From a virus (taxonomy: Duplodnaviria > Heunggongvirae > Uroviricota > Caudoviricetes), in the IMG/VR virus record IMGVR_UViG_2585427774_000009, positions 1-25,822 of that record: DNA of 25,822 bases; one strand, given 5' to 3'. The notes under the pieces are model-generated. The model had not been told where the DNA came from. It did not search any database and saw only the letters and a list, made by a program, of their open reading frames with translations. The first letter of the stretch is position 1, and the number at the start of each line of letters is the position of its first letter. Position numbers and translations under genes: made by a program. Of the stretch, positions 4,105 to 11,442 are shown piece by piece.

Positions 4105-4223
4105 CCTGTTTATGAAATTTGTTGAAGCGCCTGGTCGATTACCTGCACCAGCTAATCGCTTAAGTCAATTTACATCCTCACCTCTGTTTGACTGTTAAAT
4201 AAAACACGGCGAAGCGGTAATTT

Positions 4224-6431
4224 TTATTTTGATTCGAGATCCTCAACACGCGCTACCAAATTTTCATACTGCTCTTTCATTCGCTCATAGTTACGGCGCT
4301 GCAGCGCAGCTTCCAGAGCCAGGGCCTCCTCATAACGAATGCCATAGCGGGATCCGGCTGGGGTTTCCAGAACCTGGCTGTAAGTTGGCTCTGCAGGTTC
4401 GGTATATTCCTCAATTACCTCAGTCGGCACCTGCTCGGTATACTCCTCCTCGACATCTTCAAGCTCTGCCTCATAAACAAAAAGCTGTTTGCCTGCCTCG
4501 TCAAGACGCGGAGAACCATCCTCGTTAAAGACAAATACCTGGATAAGCTTAGGTGTCTGATACTCTTCCTGAACTACCCTCTTGATGCGTTCTCCATCTT
4601 CCGCTTCTTCATCCACAAGAATTTCGCGCGTGGCTGTCATCATCACAGGTCGTTTTACTGTACGGGTTTTTGTCACTTCCATCATGCGGCTGACAGTGCG
4701 GGTTTTTGTTACTCGCTCCCCCTCATTGGTCCGCACTGAAATATATTGGTCTTCCCATTCGTCGTAACAGAGGAGCCCGAGACCGAAGCCATCAATGCCA
4801 TGCGATGCAAACACCTCCTCCACGCGCTGCGCAATAAGGCCGAAGTGCCAGCGCGCACCGTCTTCGCCTTTTTGCGCAACCGCATCATCAAACTTAAACC
4901 GCGTGCGCCAGCTGACTTCCTCCCAGGCATCGAGGACCACATCAGGGATCGCTTCCTTAATTGGCTTGTGATTGTCATCGGAGGTGTTAATCGCACCAGT
5001 ACCAAAATAGGCAGTACGTCCTCGATATGAGGCTGAGCCATAATCGAACTGGTTATCGGCGCTCGGGCGCTGGGTGCAGTTATAGGTGACAATCCCGGCT
5101 TTTATCTCATAGTTACCTTGCCCATCTGTTGCACTACCACCGCTAACCACTACGCGAGCGTCAAAAGCAGAGCCAGCCCCACTGGACCGGTATATTGTTT
5201 GCACCGTGCTTGCAATAGTTGGAGACCCTACTGACGTAAACGCCCCTGAGTCTTCTAATTGCAAAGATTTGGTGCTGAGCTTAACCAGGTTGTGGAAAAT
5301 GATGTGGTTCACTTCAACCAACGAACCGAGGGAAAGGACGCGGTCTATTTTTGGGCAGTCGACGGAAAGTACACGGCTGTCTTCACCAAATACTGCCCCG
5401 CCATTCTGCGGGCCAAAGGCAATACCGGTTCGCCAGGTGCAGGCGCTACCCATGTTACCGACGCTAATTGCAGCATCAATTACGTCGCCGCGTTTTGCCT
5501 TGGTGCCGCCGATTTGCAGGCCGGTTCTGATGTTTGAGCTGGCACCCTCCGGAATGCCGACGTTGAATTCAGCCCCCGTGACATTGAGCGTATACATAGC
5601 CCCTGGGGTAAGCGTTCCGTAGAAATTACCACCAAAATAAGCCCCCTTAGCGCCAGCAAGCGATACTCCACCGTCTCCAGTTGAGGAGGTCGCAAAGCCG
5701 GTGACGCCTACATAGTTTCTGTCAGTATTTGTTGCATCAGTCTGACCAAGCTGCTCAAGGATGAATTCAGCAGCGTGGCGGCCGCCTTTACATCCCGCCC
5801 CCCCGAATTTGTGATTCAAGAGGAATCCGTCAACCTTTGTTCCGGGAACCATGTCATCAACAGCATTGAAACGGTCATCGTCAATCCTGATATAATTGAA
5901 CTTGGCCGTGTTGACAGTGAGCCCGCTCCCGGTAATCGGCTCCGCAAGATGAACCCCGATCCCTCGGGTAATATCATCTCCGAATTTCTCTCCTGGCCGC
6001 CCCTGCAGAATTGAAAACTTATCCAGTCCTCGGCTCATTACCCCAGGACCTACTAATGCAGCGCCGCCCAGCGCAGCTAATTCAGCCCTTAACTGGTCTG
6101 GAGCATATTTCAGAACATCAGCAAAATAGAATTGTTGGGTGCCGTATGAATCGCGAATCTCCATGCTGTAATTTTGCACGGTGACGAATTTAACAATCTG
6201 ACCGTTATAAACGGGGAATCCGCCAGCATTTATTCGCAATGGCTGAGGTACTGGAACATGGGTCCCATCTTCATTCTCAATATAAACCTGAATTTGGTTA
6301 GCAGGATTCGTAGGATCTGTATCCACTAGCCCAATAAAGATTTCTCCATTGGCAACAGCCTTAAATGCACGAGCCATAGTAAATGGCTGGCTAGGCATGG
6401 CGATAAGAACATTCGCGGTAATATCTGACAT
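4224..6431 (-). CDS. Tailspike protein: P22-like head-binding N-domain, glycine-rich receptor-binding/depolymerase domain, C-terminal S74-type intramolecular chaperone domain
   Basis: 735-aa ORF; N-terminal about 110 aa (MSDITANV...FKAVANG...[19 protein letters not shown]...LKY.PDQ) matches the P22 gp9 head-binding domain from memory; central Gly/Thr-rich region typical of beta-helix spikes; C-terminal part has a Ser-(x4)-Lys motif (TSDDNHK) and WHFGLIAQ resembling endosialidase-type autoproteolytic chaperone domains; last gene of the late operon as in P22. Confidence 0.85.
4657..4712 (-). repeat. Imperfect 36-bp tandem duplication inside the tailspike C-terminal domain
   Basis: ACTGTACGGGTTTTTGTCAC (4657-4676) and ACAGTGCGGGTTTTTGTTAC (4693-4712) on the plus strand, encoding the duplicated peptide VTKTRTV in [22 protein letters not shown]. 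Confidence 0.5.
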
Positions 6432-6531: not shown

Positions 6532-7434
6532 TCAGTAGTTATGTACTGAAGGAGGTAATTCTTTATTCTTAAGTCTCATCCATGCGGAAAGATTCGTTGG
6601 TCCGTCTGGCTCATTGATATCAACATCTCGTGAGTGATTGATTAAAACGTCTCTCGCTATATCGATAATACGGGAGAACTCATAACCGCAGTCATGACAT
6701 CTGCCGGAATAGTTCGATTGAATTTGTTTCAGCGCCGGATACAGTTCGCGGAATAATGCCTGTGAGCGGTTGGCATAATCCCATAACCATACAAGACTGT
6801 TTGCTTCTTTTGCAGAAAGCTCGTTGGTTTTCTTATCTTGTTTGCCGATAAACTCGCCTTCAAGCACTACCCTGTGGATGTACTCTACTGCTTGCGGTAT
6901 CTGAGATGCATCAAGCTCTTCAATACTTTCCACGTTGAAACGCTGATGAATCATTGCATAAGCTTCTGGGTACATTAGATGCTTTTTGCTGACTAGCATA
7001 TTTACAGCATCACGAAGCGGAGTCCTGTCATCAACAGATGTTTTCTTACGTGCATTTTCTGCCTTTCCCTTCGTCCAGTAGTCATGCAGCACGCTAAAGC
7101 ATTCCTCCTGGTACTGAATCAGTTTATCACGGATGTCAGCACGAACTTTCTCAGGGTTGATGCTGAACAGCCATCCATTTAACTTCTTCAAAGGAAGGCA
7201 GAGTAGCTTACGAAGCTTCCCATCAGCGGCAACCATGTTCATATGAACACAGTTGAATTTGCTAATCTGCTTCATGAGTTTTGTTTGCTGCGTTGACCAG
7301 CTCATTCCAAGGTTTTCAACGATTGGCTTCATCGCAACATATGCAACTCCGGCAGCCATGGCGGTGATAATTTGCTGACCGTTGAATGGTACGTAAGAGG
7401 TGTTCACTGCTTCTAAAATTGCTATACTATTCAT
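6532..7434 (-). CDS. ant: Antirepressor Ant (P22 immI)
   Basis: ORF track gives a 322-aa ORF; the internal start [21 protein letters not shown] matches the P22 Ant N-terminus from memory and gives 300 aa, with a GGAGA Shine-Dalgarno upstream; position downstream of arc. Confidence 0.85.
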
Positions 7435-7502
7435 GTTGGTTTTTCTCCACGGATTTACTGACAACCGAAGCCCTGACTGTTCCCGCAGTTGGGGCTTCAA
7501 CT
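7435..7502 (+). ncRNA. sar: Possible sar-type antisense RNA region (arc-ant intergenic, antisense to the ant ribosome-binding site)
   Basis: Established P22 biology: a small antisense RNA is transcribed opposite to ant across its translation-initiation region. Here the 68-bp arc-ant spacer contains a GAAGCCC...GGGCTTC hairpin. Ends not determined; placed by analogy only. Confidence 0.3.
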
Positions 7503-7664
7503 TTACGCGCCAATGCGCCCTTCCTTCTTAAAGCTTTCCATTACTCTCTGATAAATCTCAGAGTTAACAGACCGACCATTCTCTTCCGCCACCTTGCGGA
7601 CCAAATCCAATACTTCTTTAGGCCACCGCAAATTGAACTGCGGCATCTTGCTCATTCCTTTCAT
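7503..7664 (-). CDS. arc: Arc repressor (ribbon-helix-helix)
   Basis: Internal start of the 74-aa track ORF gives [53 protein letters not shown] (53 aa), which matches P22 Arc as I recall it (one conservative difference possible). Confidence 0.9.
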
Positions 7665-7678
7665 ATTCACCTCACAAT

Positions 7679-7699
7679 ATAGGTCCACCGTGGACCTAT
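7679..7699. promoter_or_regulatory. Mnt operator (Omnt), perfect 21-bp palindrome ATAGGTCCACCGTGGACCTAT
   Basis: Read directly; the core AGGTCCAC(C/G)GTGGACCT equals the published P22 mnt operator; lies between arc (start 7664) and mnt (start 7755), where Pant is expected. Confidence 0.75.
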
Positions 7700-7706
7700 T
7701 GAGAAT

Positions 7707-7727
7707 ATAGTAGAGTGCTTCTATCAT
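7707..7727. promoter_or_regulatory. Arc operator (Oarc)
   Basis: Plus strand reads ATAGTAGAGTGCTTCTATCAT, the reverse complement of the P22 arc operator ATGATAGAAGCACTCTACTAT as I recall it; located in the arc-mnt divergent promoter region. Confidence 0.7.
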
Positions 7728-7754
7728 GTCAATATACTAACTTGGAGTGATGGC

Positions 7755-8006
7755 ATGGCTAGAGATGATCCGCACTTTAACTTCCGTATGCCTATGGAAG
7801 TAAGGGAGAAATTAAAATTCAGGGCGGAGGCGAATGGGAGATCAATGAACTCCGAGTTGTTACAAATCGTCCAAGATGCTCTATCAAAACCATCGCCTGT
7901 GACTGGATATCGCGACGATGCAGAACGACTCGCTGATGAGCAGTCAGAGCTTGTTAAGAAGATGGTGTTTGATACGCTGAAGGATTTGTACAAAAAACCC
8001 ACCTGA
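7755..8006 (+). CDS. mnt: Mnt repressor (ribbon-helix-helix, maintenance of lysogeny)
   Basis: 83-aa ORF MARDDPHFNFRMPMEVREKLKFRAEANGRSMNSELLQIVQDALSKPSPVTGYRDDAERLADEQSELVKKMVFDTLKDLYKKPT, near-identical to P22 Mnt from memory; divergent from arc-ant. Confidence 0.9.
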   Translation: MARDDPHFNFRMPMEVREKLKFRAEANGRSMNSELLQIVQDALSKPSPVTGYRDDAERLADEQSELVKKMVFDTLKDLYKKPT

Positions 8007-8015
8007 CGGTGGGTT
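7992..8015. terminator. Hairpin terminator shared by convergent mnt (+) and the 355-aa gene (-)
   Basis: AAAAAA-CCCACC-TGAC-GGTGGG-TT; the minus-strand transcript would end in a U-run (plus-strand A-run 7992-7997); overlaps the mnt stop codon. Confidence 0.55.
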
Positions 8016-8019
8016 ACTG

Positions 8020-9027
8020 TTACTTGTCTGAATCATCCAGTTCGTCTGTTTTCACATCCTCAAACCTTGGATGCAGGCGATTCATTTTTGCAATAAAATC
8101 TGAATAGTCGTTAGATAGCTTCATAATCGTAACGGTTGATGACAGATGCTCTCTTAATTTTTGATATCCAATATTTGGCGTCAGCCCCTGAAACAACTTT
8201 GTACCTTTTGAGGCCTTTACGTTCTGCTTTTTAAGCTCCTCAAGGATGTTTGGTGCCAATCTCTTGTAGACGATATCATTTGTCAAAACGCCAAAATACT
8301 GAGGCCGGAAGCGGGGATTTTCCGGCGGGTATTCTAAGCCCCTTAACCTGAAAAGCTCTTCATAATAATCAGCAGGAAATGTTGTAATATAAGGTTGAAT
8401 TTCCTTTGCGACAAAGGCCTCGAGTATTTTGGCGAGTGCATCTTTTTCTCTATCTCGCTGGTAACCCGTCGCTTCATCAACAAGCGCTATTATTCCGACT
8501 TTAGCTAATGAGCGCACCAGAATTTCAGCTTTCTTGGCTGTCTCTAACTGGTTTGGCCTGGTGATAGCGCCTGCCTCTCTTGCCTTTAAATAAACATCGC
8601 AGACAAGAGGTATTATGGATGCGTCATAACCTTCCTGGACGGAGCCAGTAATCGTCTTGTATTTGACCTTATTGATCACATCCATAACATCTTGATTTAT
8701 ATATTTTTTAAGGTTTGCAGCATCCATAAAAGCGGGCATATTGATCACCCCCTCTTCTTGAGGTGCTCTACCCCCTCTTTGTGGTCGGCCAAATGCTTTA
8801 AAAACAGAAGCTTGTGATATGATACGCCGTCCATTTTCGAGAACCGCGACATCTAATTCCGCATCACCGATCTTTAACTTTCCCTCATTCGCAGATACGG
8901 GCAATAAAGCTTTTTCTTTTTTTGCGGCAACAGCCTTTCTTGAGGATTCTTTTCTTTGCTCTGCTGTCATTTTTGCCGCGCGTGCCTTACCGCCTTTGGC
9001 CTTCCCACTAACATCATCATTTTTCAT
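8020..9027 (-). CDS. Hypothetical protein with basic Lys/Ala-rich N-terminus and a C-terminal region resembling the P63C-type phage domain
   Basis: ORF track gives 8020..9087 (355 aa); the likely start is the ATG at 9027 or 9033 (MKNDDVSGKAKGGKARAAK...). The IALVDEATGYQRDREKDALAKILEAF segment resembles my recollection of P63C-domain proteins; unverified. Occupies the position where P22 carries sieA-region genes, between gp16 and mnt. Confidence 0.6.
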   Translation of the reverse strand: MKNDDVSGKAKGGKARAAKMTAEQRKESSRKAVAAKKEKALLPVSANEGKLKIGDAELDVAVLENGRRIISQASVFKAFGRPQRGGRAPQEEGVINMPAFMDAANLKKYINQDVMDVINKVKYKTITGSVQEGYDASIIPLVCDVYLKAREAGAITRPNQLETAKKAEILVRSLAKVGIIALVDEATGYQRDREKDALAKILEAFVAKEIQPYITTFPADYYEELFRLRGLEYPPENPRFRPQYFGVLTNDIVYKRLAPNILEELKKQNVKASKGTKLFQGLTPNIGYQKLREHLSSTVTIMKLSNDYSDFIAKMNRLHPRFEDVKTDELDDSDK

Positions 9028-9069
9028 GAGCATATCTCGTGTTGTGATTGATAAGTCAATCATACACAT

Positions 9070-9104
9070 GCACGTTGTAACGTGCAATATTTAAATATGC
9101 ACGT
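9070..9104. promoter_or_regulatory. Cluster of palindromic operator-like sites in a divergent promoter region
   Basis: GCACGTT-GT-AACGTGC inverted repeat (9070-9085), perfect 12-bp palindrome ATATTTAAATAT (9087-9098) and a third GCACGT copy (9099-9104); lies between the minus-strand 355-aa gene and the plus-strand 129-aa gene. Confidence 0.35.
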
Positions 9105-9186
9105 AAATTGCAAATCAGATAATGAGGAGACTTTCTCCCCCTTGCACTGACATCATGGTATCCTGCGCAAAACTAAGGAGGTTGGT

Positions 9187-9576
9187 GTGAAGCAATTTCT
9201 TACTGCTATGTTCTTATTCATATCTTTTGGGGCTACAGCAGAGTGCTGGGTCGTTGGAGATATGCGCGGAATAAGCTATTCAGAACGAAATAATTTCCAT
9301 CCGGAAGAAGATGGTTTTAGTGGAACATTCATCATTAAGACAAACGGTGAAGATGCCAGCATCACATATTCTGGGACAGATGCGGGCGGCATGGCTTACA
9401 AAGCATTGTCTAAAAACTCCATCATAGGAATCGGCGCGAATGGCGAAACTCAACGCGTTATCGACTCATGGGTAATACATCCAACTGGAACAGTTTTAAT
9501 GTCAAAAACCATTTCCGGTTATGGAAATATGGATTCAACCAAAGCTTTTGTTGGAAAAGTAAAAAGAAAATGTTAG
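9187..9576 (+). CDS. Hypothetical secreted (signal-peptide) small protein, opposite-strand moron
   Basis: GTG start preceded by a strong AAGGAGG Shine-Dalgarno with 6-nt spacing; N-terminus MKQFLTAMFLFISFGATA-E is a typical Sec signal peptide with an A-x-A cleavage site; transcribed against the late operon. Confidence 0.6.
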   Translation: MKQFLTAMFLFISFGATAECWVVGDMRGISYSERNNFHPEEDGFSGTFIIKTNGEDASITYSGTDAGGMAYKALSKNSIIGIGANGETQRVIDSWVIHPTGTVLMSKTISGYGNMDSTKAFVGKVKRKC

Positions 9577-9600: not shown

Positions 9601-11442
9601 TTACTGCTGTGTTGCCTCAGTAGCAAACAGCGGTCTGATGGCATTCGCAGCGTTATTTATCGCTCTTTCATAGGCTGGTGTTCCTGCTTTGGTGTTTGCC
9701 AAACGAAGAAGCATATTCCTTGCTGCTTTGGACTCATACAAGCGCATCATTGCACCAAAACCAGCCTCAAGCCCCATTGATACGCCAAGGGTCGCAGTTG
9801 CGCCAATCGTCCTTATCCTGTTGGCTTGCGATTGCCCCGTCTGAGTTACTACATTTGCGGTGTCTGACCTTGCTGTTTGCTGTAGAACTTCATGAAGAGC
9901 ATCAAGCTCTTTCATGTGCTTTCCAGAAAAAATAGTGTTGTAAATTTCACCGCCTGACTGAGATTTCAGCTTATTAACTTCAGTGATGAACTTGGCTGGA
10001 GAGTCCCCGGCCTTTTCCGCTATTTTGCTGACGTAAGCTGCACGCATAGCATCTTTCCCCTTATCATCCAGTGCGCTCCAGATTCGTTTCACGTCAGATG
10101 GTTTTCTGCTTAATACAACGGTATTTATAAGTTCAGGACTGGCTTCACTGCTTGCCTTGTTGAGCTTGTTGGCAATGTTTTTATTAAGCACCTTATTATA
10201 AACGTTTGCATAATCGGAATTTGCTTTAAGGTATTTTGCTGCGTCTGATGCACCGAGGTTTTTAGCAACTGCGTTACGAAGGTCTTTTGACATTGCATTC
10301 TCTACCATATTGGTAGCTGCTTTTGCCTGGTTGGGGAAGACCATAGCATCTCCCTGAACATTAGATCTAAATGCTGTTCTGTGCTGACGCAAGAGATCAA
10401 ACGTAACATCCAAATCAGTTGCAGGGTTTGCTAATTCTTCACGTAGGTTACGCAAGGATGTAAGCAGGCTTTGATTGGCAGACGTCCCAAGCCGTTCCTG
10501 TCTTGCGATCGCTGTATTCAGAGCATTCATGGTATTTGTGGTATCAACTGCGGCATTACCCATTTTATTGGTGACGTCATTGATAACAGCGCCAGCGGCA
10601 TCCTTCCGCCCCCTTAACGTGGTGGTAAGAGATTTCACCACATCATCAGGGTTGTACTCACCAAAACGGTCAAAATAATTGCTTACCAGTTTACTACGCG
10701 TTGCATATTGCTCCGCTCGCTTTGAGCCTGTCCCGAGCAAAGCACCCTCGGCATCCTGAGTAAGGCCACGAGTGAAAGCATTTTTCGGCGGGATAACATC
10801 AGATGTCATTGGTGTCACGCCCATCGATTCTGATGTGGCAATTTTCTTCGCCACTTCTGGCGCAATATCACCTTTTATAGCCGTTATTCCACGCCCTATT
10901 CCCTTTGCTGCTGCGGAAAGAACACCCTGAGCGGCAAGGTTAACTCCGGCATTTTTAGCTGCATTTTGTGCGAAATCGCCTTTCTGATTTGCGGCCTCTG
11001 CCAGTGATCCAATAGCCATGCTTCCTGCCGTTCCAACTCCTGGAACTAAATACCCGCCAATTGTTTCTCCAGCTTGCGCATAAGGGTCTGTCGGTCGATC
11101 GACTGGACGATAGACATCATCCAATACTTTTGGCCCACCAAGCCCCTGACTGATTGCATTAATCAGACTTGCGCCACCCTGCAATACGTCAAATGGTATG
11201 TTTACCAGACCACGACCAGCCTGTTCTGAAATTTGCCCTGCACTTTGACCACCAGTGAGCCAATCGCCAGCTTGTTGCATTAATGATGGTTCTTCCCGTG
11301 TTGGTGCATTATTGGCCTGATTAACTGTTTGTTGCTGAACAGCCTGACCAGCAAAATACTCATCAATGGCGGTGCCAATATCTTCGGTGCTCGTACCATC
11401 AGGAAAGGTAAATGTCTTACCGTTTGCAGTTACTTTCATCAT
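9601..11442 (-). CDS. Ejection (internal/pilot) protein, P22 gp16-like
   Basis: 613-aa ORF in the P22 gene-16 position and of matching size (P22 gp16 about 609 aa); Ala/Gly/Gln-rich; start overlaps the upstream gene stop. Confidence 0.8.

Follow-up and report, generated by a model that had tools for sequence, protein, structure and literature searches.

A mobile one-gene cassette of the P63C family in an Escherichia coli P22-like prophage, with a putative operator on its own promoter

We analysed a gene of the P63C family in a 25,822-nucleotide stretch of viral DNA (Caudoviricetes; IMG/VR record IMGVR_UViG_2585427774_000009, positions 1 to 25,822; this whole stretch is called the window in the following). 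Sequence comparison indicates that the gene is not part of the P22-like backbone and that it is an autonomous accessory (moron-type) one-gene cassette moving between phages and other mobile elements. Its product probably binds an operator on its own promoter via a basic N-terminal arm. The evidence comprises the anatomy and the mobility of the cassette, a motif that recurs upstream of the gene across the family, and a covariation between the variant of this motif and residues in the basic tail of the protein; binding would repress transcription, with the tail as the reading head. The biological role is the least certain part of our interpretation. By analogy with the abortive-infection protein BstA, we tentatively propose a conflict or exclusion function that is expressed in the lysogen and acts on the DNA of competing phages or elements.

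The window represents an E. coli P22-like prophage that is 100% identical to strains EC102 and HZDC01 across 5 kb. Homology between the window and the prophage of strain A35 ends at position 8014 and picks up again at 9153. The segment delimited in this way and the signals associated with it are as follows:

8015-9152, no strand assigned: cargo cassette of 1138 bp, i.e. the DNA absent from homologous P22-like prophages such as A35.
8020-9027, minus strand: P63C-family coding sequence, defined by the open reading frame (ORF), Pfam, PHROG and the leader spacing.
9036-9047, minus strand: conserved 5' leader element TCACAACACGAG, 8 nt ahead of the start codon.
9059-9087, minus strand: putative sigma-70 promoter with the -35 hexamer TTGCAC at 9087-9082, a 17-nt spacer and the -10 hexamer TATGAT at 9064-9059.
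9069-9086, no strand assigned: perfect 18-bp palindrome TGCACGTTGTAACGTGCA, the putative operator, which overlaps the -35 hexamer and fills the spacer.
9098-9104, no strand assigned: extra putative operator half-site TGCACGT / ACGTGCA, upstream of the palindrome.
7996-8015, no strand assigned: bidirectional intrinsic terminator, AACCCACC-loop-GGTGGGTT followed by a T run, shared with mnt (-17.1 kcal/mol, z -4.2).

A 5-kb query matches 1381 E. coli genomes, only four of which reach a coverage of at least 80%, and the ~1.1-kb cassette segment is absent from most related prophages among the matches listed. The 1138-bp insert is present at full length and at least 98.9% identity in 49 of 5426 complete E. 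coli genomes. At least three contexts can be distinguished, comprising the P22-like immI slot (the window and ETEC1720), the nin region of 933W-type and other lambdoid phages, where the cassette lies beside roi with a truncated ninE left over, and a myovirus-like baseplate region. The truncated ninE provides direct sequence evidence for insertion in the nin region. In the lambdoid prophage loci L170 and L171 this ninE pseudogene adjoins the cassette at 4163-4240 of either locus. At the DNA level the window gene is 99.3% identical to L0095 (ST933Wp35) of the Shiga-toxin phage 933W, and the DNA common to the window and 933W spans 7973-9176 at the same identity, while the DNA shared with the myovirus prophage spans 7992-9174. 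On one side the 933W copy has retained the final 34 nt of mnt, and on the other 24 nt from the leader of a neighbouring 129-amino-acid gene, so that this copy originated from a P22-like slot. The left junction depends on the context (7973 versus 7992), and such unequal junctions point to illegitimate shuffling of the moron type, not to precise transposition. In Morganella, one identical homologous protein is encoded in three prophage types, once beside an ant/arc pair. The cassette thus combines the marks of a moron, i.e. variable presence among homologous phages, a terminator of its own, as proposed in an earlier reading made from the window alone (the sequence-only reading), and a predicted promoter of its own. 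Since the cassette is 99.3% identical to the one in the 933W nin region, the place beside mnt is one of several landing sites.

In strain A35 the equivalent slot (locus L002, 2024-2443) encodes an unrelated 139-amino-acid protein with a peptidase-associated/transthyretin-like domain. As related P22-like prophages carry a different cargo gene at this place, the mnt-proximal slot is a cargo exchange point.

The 18-bp palindrome is present in a single copy in the window, and three of the five window copies of TGCACGT are concentrated within 36 bp, at 9069-9104. The same palindrome is found upstream of Chromobacterium and Morganella homologues whose proteins are only 57-58% identical to the window protein. 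A scan of IMG/VR for the palindrome returned 69 loci, 27 of them with a P63C homologue starting 41-72 bp downstream; these homologues include ones at 33-48% identity, and where a homologue is present it is always at that downstream position. The layout of the promoter likewise recurs in homologous loci. Based on an alignment made by eye, the upstream regions consist, from 5' to 3', of a half-site, an AT-rich spacer, the palindrome with its left arm forming the -35 hexamer, a -10-like hexamer, a third half-site, the leader element, 8-9 nt and the ATG.

The same 18-mer also lies in a cI/cro-like intergenic region in ~17 IMG/VR loci. At locus L020, for instance, the palindrome (CTGCACGTTATAACGTGCAT, 677-694) and a nearby half-site are located between divergent cI-like and cro-like genes, and ~16 IMG/VR loci are similar. 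The phages of this group are relatives of Bifidobacterium phage and find no match in E. coli, and no protein with the tail motif is encoded nearby; the palindrome at these loci is probably a coincidence, and a resident phage repressor was rejected as its binder.

The upstream motif extends across the family. At most of 77 genomic loci from many phyla, the P63C gene is preceded within ~130 bp by an inverted repeat with the half-site TGCAAGCA(T), TGCACGCA or TGCACGTT. The core TGC[AT][ACT]GCA occurs in the 160 bp upstream of the gene at 64% of these loci, compared to 1.4% of 770 control windows taken from the same loci, and at least two copies of the core are present at 49% of the loci but in 0% of the controls. 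Since the P63C protein is the sole component common to these loci across phyla, it is the obvious binder.

To relate the operator to the protein, 61 loci were sorted into the operator classes A (TGCAAGCA, 37 loci), B (TGCACGCA, 9 loci) and C (TGCACGTT, 15 loci), and the protein columns that best separate the classes were sought. The five most discriminating columns all map to amino acids 20-40, i.e. to the basic arm. Position 28 is occupied by Ile in 35 of the 37 class-A loci and by Ser, Ala or Gln in all 24 loci of classes B and C, where the half-site begins with TGCAC. At residue 20, class A has Leu, and classes B and C mainly have Met. At residues 36 and 37, Arg-Trp predominates in class A (34 and 30 of 37) and in class B (5 and 5 of 9), the half-sites of which end in GCA, and Lys-Lys predominates in class C (13 and 10 of 15), with half-sites ending in GTT. 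Class B shares residue 28 with class C, in parallel to the shared fifth base of the half-site; outside the arm, class-B proteins are closer to class A (maximum identity 58-73%, versus 50-63% to class C). The codons of the tail and the operator do not overlap. Based on this covariation of the operator variant with residues of the basic tail, the protein most likely reads its own promoter, and position 28 is a candidate recognition residue, with Ile for TGCAA and mainly Ser or Ala for TGCAC half-sites.

The position of the promoter also bears on the start of the gene. The ORF at 8020-9027 comprises 335 codons and a stop, in agreement with the protein of roughly 335 amino acids proposed by the sequence-only reading; the longest possible ORF would start at TTG 9087. 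RefSeq WP_000335901.1 is identical to the window protein across 335 amino acids and is annotated 14 amino acids longer (349 amino acids, ATG 9069). This RefSeq start falls within the operator palindrome, upstream of the predicted -10 hexamer. In seven divergent homologous loci a constant spacing of CACGAG, 8-9 nt and ATG is conserved, which places the start in the window at ATG 9027, and the position of the predicted promoter provides further support. The RefSeq start thus appears to lie 42 nt too far upstream, and ATG 9027 is favoured.

The gene is a real, already annotated member of the P63C family, which has no assigned function. The Pfam model P63C (PF10546) matches amino acids 201-291 with an E-value of 9e-24 (84.3 bits compared to a gathering cut-off of 26.1) over model positions 1-93 of 93, confirming the assignment of the sequence-only reading. 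PHROG 2384 (unknown function) matches amino acids 3-334 (E 1.8e-146), so that the full-length architecture is common to other members, and all 138 aligned homologues match PF10546 in a Pfam scan. The sequence IALVDEATGYQ, which had been taken as the mark of the P63C domain, is present at amino acids 180-190 and nearly invariant in the 138 homologues; it lies just N-terminal of the Pfam model and not within it. The Lys/Ala-rich basic tail recognized at the N-terminus is likewise real and corresponds to a conserved motif, GGKARAxKMTxEQRKxSxxKAxAAKK, for which Pfam has no model. In the Pfam scans P63C is the only family found, and no characterized structural or enzymatic family was identified. 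A literature search on P63C, PF10546 and L0095 found no functional paper, consistent with the earlier statement that the family has no established function. Neither the conserved operator nor the covariation of tail and operator, the cassette behaviour or the IS1 association described below was found in the literature searched.

The name P63C refers to the C-terminus of p63 of the Myxococcus phage Mx8 (Pfam PF10546). Homologues that align along the full length, including the tail, at 42-70% identity are found in Proteobacteria, Actinobacteria, Chloroflexi, Planctomycetes, Chlamydiae, Bacteroidetes, Nitrospira and Acidobacteria. Searches returned over 6500 closely related full-length proteins, and at 50% identity 2125 clusters; among the best 150 of the 2125 cluster representatives for the C-terminal half, most are 290-370 amino acids long with a similarly placed domain. 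A Pseudomonas homologue (loci L004-L008) resides in a chromosomal island beside S-type pyocin/immunity and PAAR genes, with phage genes absent nearby.

A structural model was calculated with AlphaFold from the 138-sequence alignment and has a mean predicted local distance difference test score (pLDDT) of 84; in a first AlphaFold2 run with 34 sequences the C-terminal half had been poor (pLDDT 69). Three parts are distinguished in the predicted protein:

8902-9006, minus strand: basic two-helix N-terminal arm, amino acids 8-42, from the model and the conserved motif; residues 20, 28, 36 and 37 covary with the operator variant.
8557-8901, minus strand: alpha/beta N-domain, amino acids 43-157, with a predicted Bro-N/KilA-N/winged-helix-like fold.
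8023-8556, minus strand: predicted all-helical C-terminal half, amino acids 158-335, with the P63C Pfam match at 8155-8427 and IALVDEATGYQ at 8458-8490.

In the model the arm is formed by helices 9-19 and 22-40, the alpha/beta domain is predicted with a pLDDT of 94-98, and the VDEATGYQ motif is located within helices of the C-terminal half. A Foldseek comparison with viral models recovers Mx8 p63 first, followed by many Bro, Bro-N, antirepressor and KilA proteins at weak E-values. None of the 138 members has a Bro-N or KilA-N match in Pfam, and the N-domain would thus be Bro-N/KilA-N-like by predicted fold only. For the C-terminal half no recognizable solved relative was found, and a profile search of the PDB gave only marginal hits to UbiX and the IBP39 winged helix (E 0.13).

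The C-terminal half contains ~20 invariant polar residues, many of them Asp, Glu, Arg, His or Tyr. Such residues could belong to a site-specific DNA enzyme, i.e. a free-standing homing-type nuclease that represses its own promoter like I-TevI and whose activity drives the spread of the cassette. A single mobile gene between conserved phage genes, an operator on the gene's own promoter and the transfer of donor flanks together with the gene into 933W would all be compatible with this. We nevertheless regard a homing enzyme as very unlikely. The recipient sites have no homology to the donor site, unlike in homing, the conservation is far above that usual for homing endonucleases, and no nuclease or recombinase fold was recovered. 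In addition, the VDEATGYQ region is predicted to be helical in a good model, so that a reading as a DnaQ-like, DEDD-type or PD-(D/E)xK nuclease site was rejected.

The resemblance of the N-domain to Bro-N/KilA-N folds bears more directly on a second alternative, in which the protein is an antirepressor-like regulator or a regulator of lytic development in the style of Ant or Roi, acting on repressors or transcription and not on competitors. P22 Ant and HK022/933W Roi combine a Bro-N-like N-domain fold with a helical C-terminal module, as predicted here, and both are encoded next to the cassette, Ant in immI and Roi in the nin region. The genes adjoining the cassette are ant/arc/mnt in the window and a Morganella siphovirus, and roi/KilAC in lambdoid phages. 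A PHROG search gave a faint match to an Ant family (E 0.0027), and Iyer and colleagues reportedly placed P63C among transcription regulators of DNA viruses in 2002. On the other hand, the protein differs from Ant and Roi in having a basic arm and a putative operator of its own. Pfam scans of the window protein and its homologues detected no P22_AR_N/C, ANT or KilA-C domain, and an hhalign comparison with the window's own Ant gave a probability of 0.1%. Full-length identities of 42-50% are maintained across phyla whose phage repressors are unrelated, P63C proteins are also found outside prophages, in chromosomal islands and IS1-like elements, and the gene is dispensable in nearly all related prophages. 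We consider an antirepressor-type function unlikely.

The genes around P63C were surveyed in 59 IMG/VR loci encoding proteins less than 90% identical to the window protein. At 18 of the 59 loci a cI-type repressor (HTH_3 plus Peptidase_S24) is encoded no more than two genes away, and at 17 it is upstream and co-directional. Genes for Bro-N or Bro-N plus P22_AR_C proteins, a further point for an antirepressor-like regulator, adjoin the P63C gene at ~13. In another phage group the P63C gene is located in antisense orientation between Q and the lysis genes. Transcription in lysogens is typical of the regions downstream of cI and between Q and the lysis genes.

In the window, the interval between gene 16 (9601-11442, minus strand) and mnt (7755-8006, plus strand) contains two ORFs, the P63C gene and a 129-amino-acid ORF at 9187-9576 on the plus strand, and not a single protein gene as had been assumed. 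The P22 sieA gene lies on the strand opposite to the late genes and directly adjoins gene 16, so that by strand and position its counterpart is the 129-amino-acid ORF, and the P63C gene does not occupy a sieA-like slot. The smaller ORF is conserved in related E. coli prophages. Its product has a signal-peptide-like N-terminus, belongs to PHROG 2651 and is 122 amino acids long in RefSeq; it has no Pfam match and no similarity to SieA. As the sieA-equivalent position is held by this other ORF and the cassette recurs almost unchanged in the 933W nin region, the position of the P63C gene, from which an immunity role had been argued, is a weak argument for it. P22 SieA and lambda RexAB resemble P63C in that their genes are optional and are located where the lysogen is transcriptionally active. 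SieA and RexB are membrane proteins; the P63C protein, unlike them, has a basic arm of DNA-binding type and a predicted Bro-N-like domain, its gene is located elsewhere than the sieA position, and a BLASTP comparison with SieA gave no similarity (E 12).

The same interval bears on the proposal that the gene is transcribed with the late operon. This was an argument from orientation only and was not confirmed: the gene has a predicted promoter and a putative operator of its own, and between it and gene 16 lies the opposite-strand ORF. If the gene encoded a late structural or ejection-associated virion protein of the P22 type, it would be expressed from the late operon, and the gene indeed has the same orientation as genes 20, 16 and 9. 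In P22, antiterminated late transcription must cross the slot to reach the tailspike gene. Such a function is effectively excluded by the four well-covered genomes among 1381 and the lack of the cassette segment in most listed relatives, by the unrelated gene that fills the slot in related prophages, and by the presence of the same cassette in early regions of lambdoid phages.

Beyond the cassette, the window contains a complete P22-type immI region with ant, arc and mnt (6532-8006) and the sar RNA at 7435-7502 on the plus strand (Rfam, 95.6 bits). A search of the cassette for known RNAs returned only this sar RNA, which is located in immI. Towards one end of the window, a tRNA-Arg(CCT) at 1009-1083 lies beside a 408-amino-acid ORF (1209-2435) that is annotated in RefSeq as the integrase IntS in the near-identical HZDC01 prophage. 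The tRNA-Arg(CCT)/IntS pair marks the prophage end and the attachment site beside yfdC.

A second home of the family is an IS1-family element. At ~21-23 of 80 genomic loci from many phyla, a helix-turn-helix plus DDE protein of 290-320 amino acids is encoded immediately upstream of and divergently from the P63C gene. It is a divergent IS1-family transposase with copies 53-62% identical to each other, and the inverted repeat lies within the intergenic region that the two genes share. Terminal inverted repeats bound units of 2.2-2.35 kb in four loci (L113 4985-7309; L114 4978-7338; L158 5017-7232; L164 5046-7251). The element is found in Mycobacterium, Planctomycetes, Nitrospira, Chloroflexi and others. 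Ten loci also have a small third gene, which is convergent with P63C and encodes a C-terminus that repeats the basic P63C tail motif; in four sequences inspected it has Ile and Arg-Trp at the covarying positions, and three of these four genes belong to loci with a TGCAAGCA/TGCTTGCA half-site recorded upstream. Some longer P63C proteins of 420-460 amino acids (P0334, P0361, P0374) have an N-terminal transposase-type zinc ribbon, Zn_ribbon_IS1595.

P63C could accordingly be primarily transposon-associated, as a regulator or accessory factor of the IS1 family, with solo phage copies as remnants or escaped passengers. The upstream transposase with the inverted repeat in between, the bounded units, the small gene with the tail motif and the zinc ribbon would fit this, and in this respect P63C resembles an IS1-family passenger, with about a quarter of the genomic homologues in a 2.2-2.35-kb unit. 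The window copy, by comparison, has neither a transposase nor terminal inverted repeats, no transposase adjoins the cassette in the four E. coli contexts examined, and the IS1-like transposase is absent from most genomic and viral loci. The cassette junctions also vary on the left side and carry donor flanks, not terminal repeats or target duplications. We thus consider a primary role in transposition quite unlikely.

A functional analogy can be drawn with BstA, an abortive-infection protein with a KilA-N-like N-domain that is encoded downstream of cI (Owen et al. 2021, PMC8585504). Its cognate DNA element (aba) spans the 29 bp before the gene plus the gene's first 34 bp and provides self-immunity to the carrier phage (PMC8585504). 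Like BstA, P63C is encoded by a single prophage accessory gene, often downstream of a cI repressor, and would combine a putative DNA-binding N-domain, KilA-N-like by predicted fold, with an uncharacterized second domain; the 5' end of either locus has a short, variant-specific DNA element that is cognate to the protein, putatively so in the case of P63C, and both proteins retain ~50% identity across distant bacteria. The two differ in that aba consists of direct repeats overlapping the start codon, whereas P63C has an inverted repeat within its promoter. In a non-significant hhalign comparison, amino acids 58-193 of P63C and 28-153 of BstA (locus L248, 28112-29035) align colinearly over both N-domains and share the patterns VL.DGt..Lt...l..lG and aY..VC..L..A. 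The P63C and BstA families may be very distant relatives. The C-terminal domain of BstA-like proteins (PF26567) is absent from Pfam scans of the window protein and the 138 homologues. P63C may act like BstA without being a member of the BstA family.

Taken together, we favour an autonomous cassette in which the P63C gene would be transcribed from its own promoter and the protein, probably as a dimer, would bind the inverted repeat overlapping the -35 hexamer and the spacer, thereby keeping its own level in the lysogen low and steady. The product would be a three-part DNA-binding protein, with the basic two-helix arm, the Bro-N/KilA-N-like domain and the all-helical C-terminal half with the P63C domain, the latter half being the presumed effector. 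An optional cargo gene with its own promoter and terminator, located downstream of cI in 17 of 59 IMG/VR loci, is consistent with an exclusion or defence role, which is plausible but unproven. If the conflict role holds, the cognate operator could double as a self-recognition element.

Several observations weigh against this interpretation. The covariation could partly reflect linkage, as operator and tail DNA are ~200 bp apart and may be co-exchanged by mosaic recombination, and the motif overlaps a -35-like sequence (TTGCAx). With regard to the proposed role, an NCBIfam search of the window protein yielded nothing meaningful, and PADLOC assigned it to no defence family, with only a marginal match to a type I specificity subunit. 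The nearest neighbours show no defence enrichment or consistent partner in PADLOC (~4 of 146 match defence families), and the hhalign probability for P63C against the BstA family is a non-significant 2.2%. Finally, the IS1-family element in about a quarter of the genomic copies points to a transposition-related role.

A broader and rather doubtful extension would be that P63C proteins are phylum-spanning single-gene conflict modules on mobile elements, whose Bro-N-like and P63C domains act on foreign replicating DNA. The sequence-specific arm would read a cognate inverted repeat that both sets the protein level and marks the DNA as 'self'. If true, this would be a BstA-like system with built-in self-immunity, unrelated in sequence and far more widespread, which could travel on phages, genomic islands and IS1-family elements.

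The P63C family is large and has one member in the Shiga-toxin phage 933W. What was an anonymous ORF now has a defined putative operator, a candidate recognition residue and a defined unit of 1.14 kb. A function in phage exclusion or in the control of IS1-type transposition would, if true, explain why the cassette recurs in immunity, nin and tail-operon regions.

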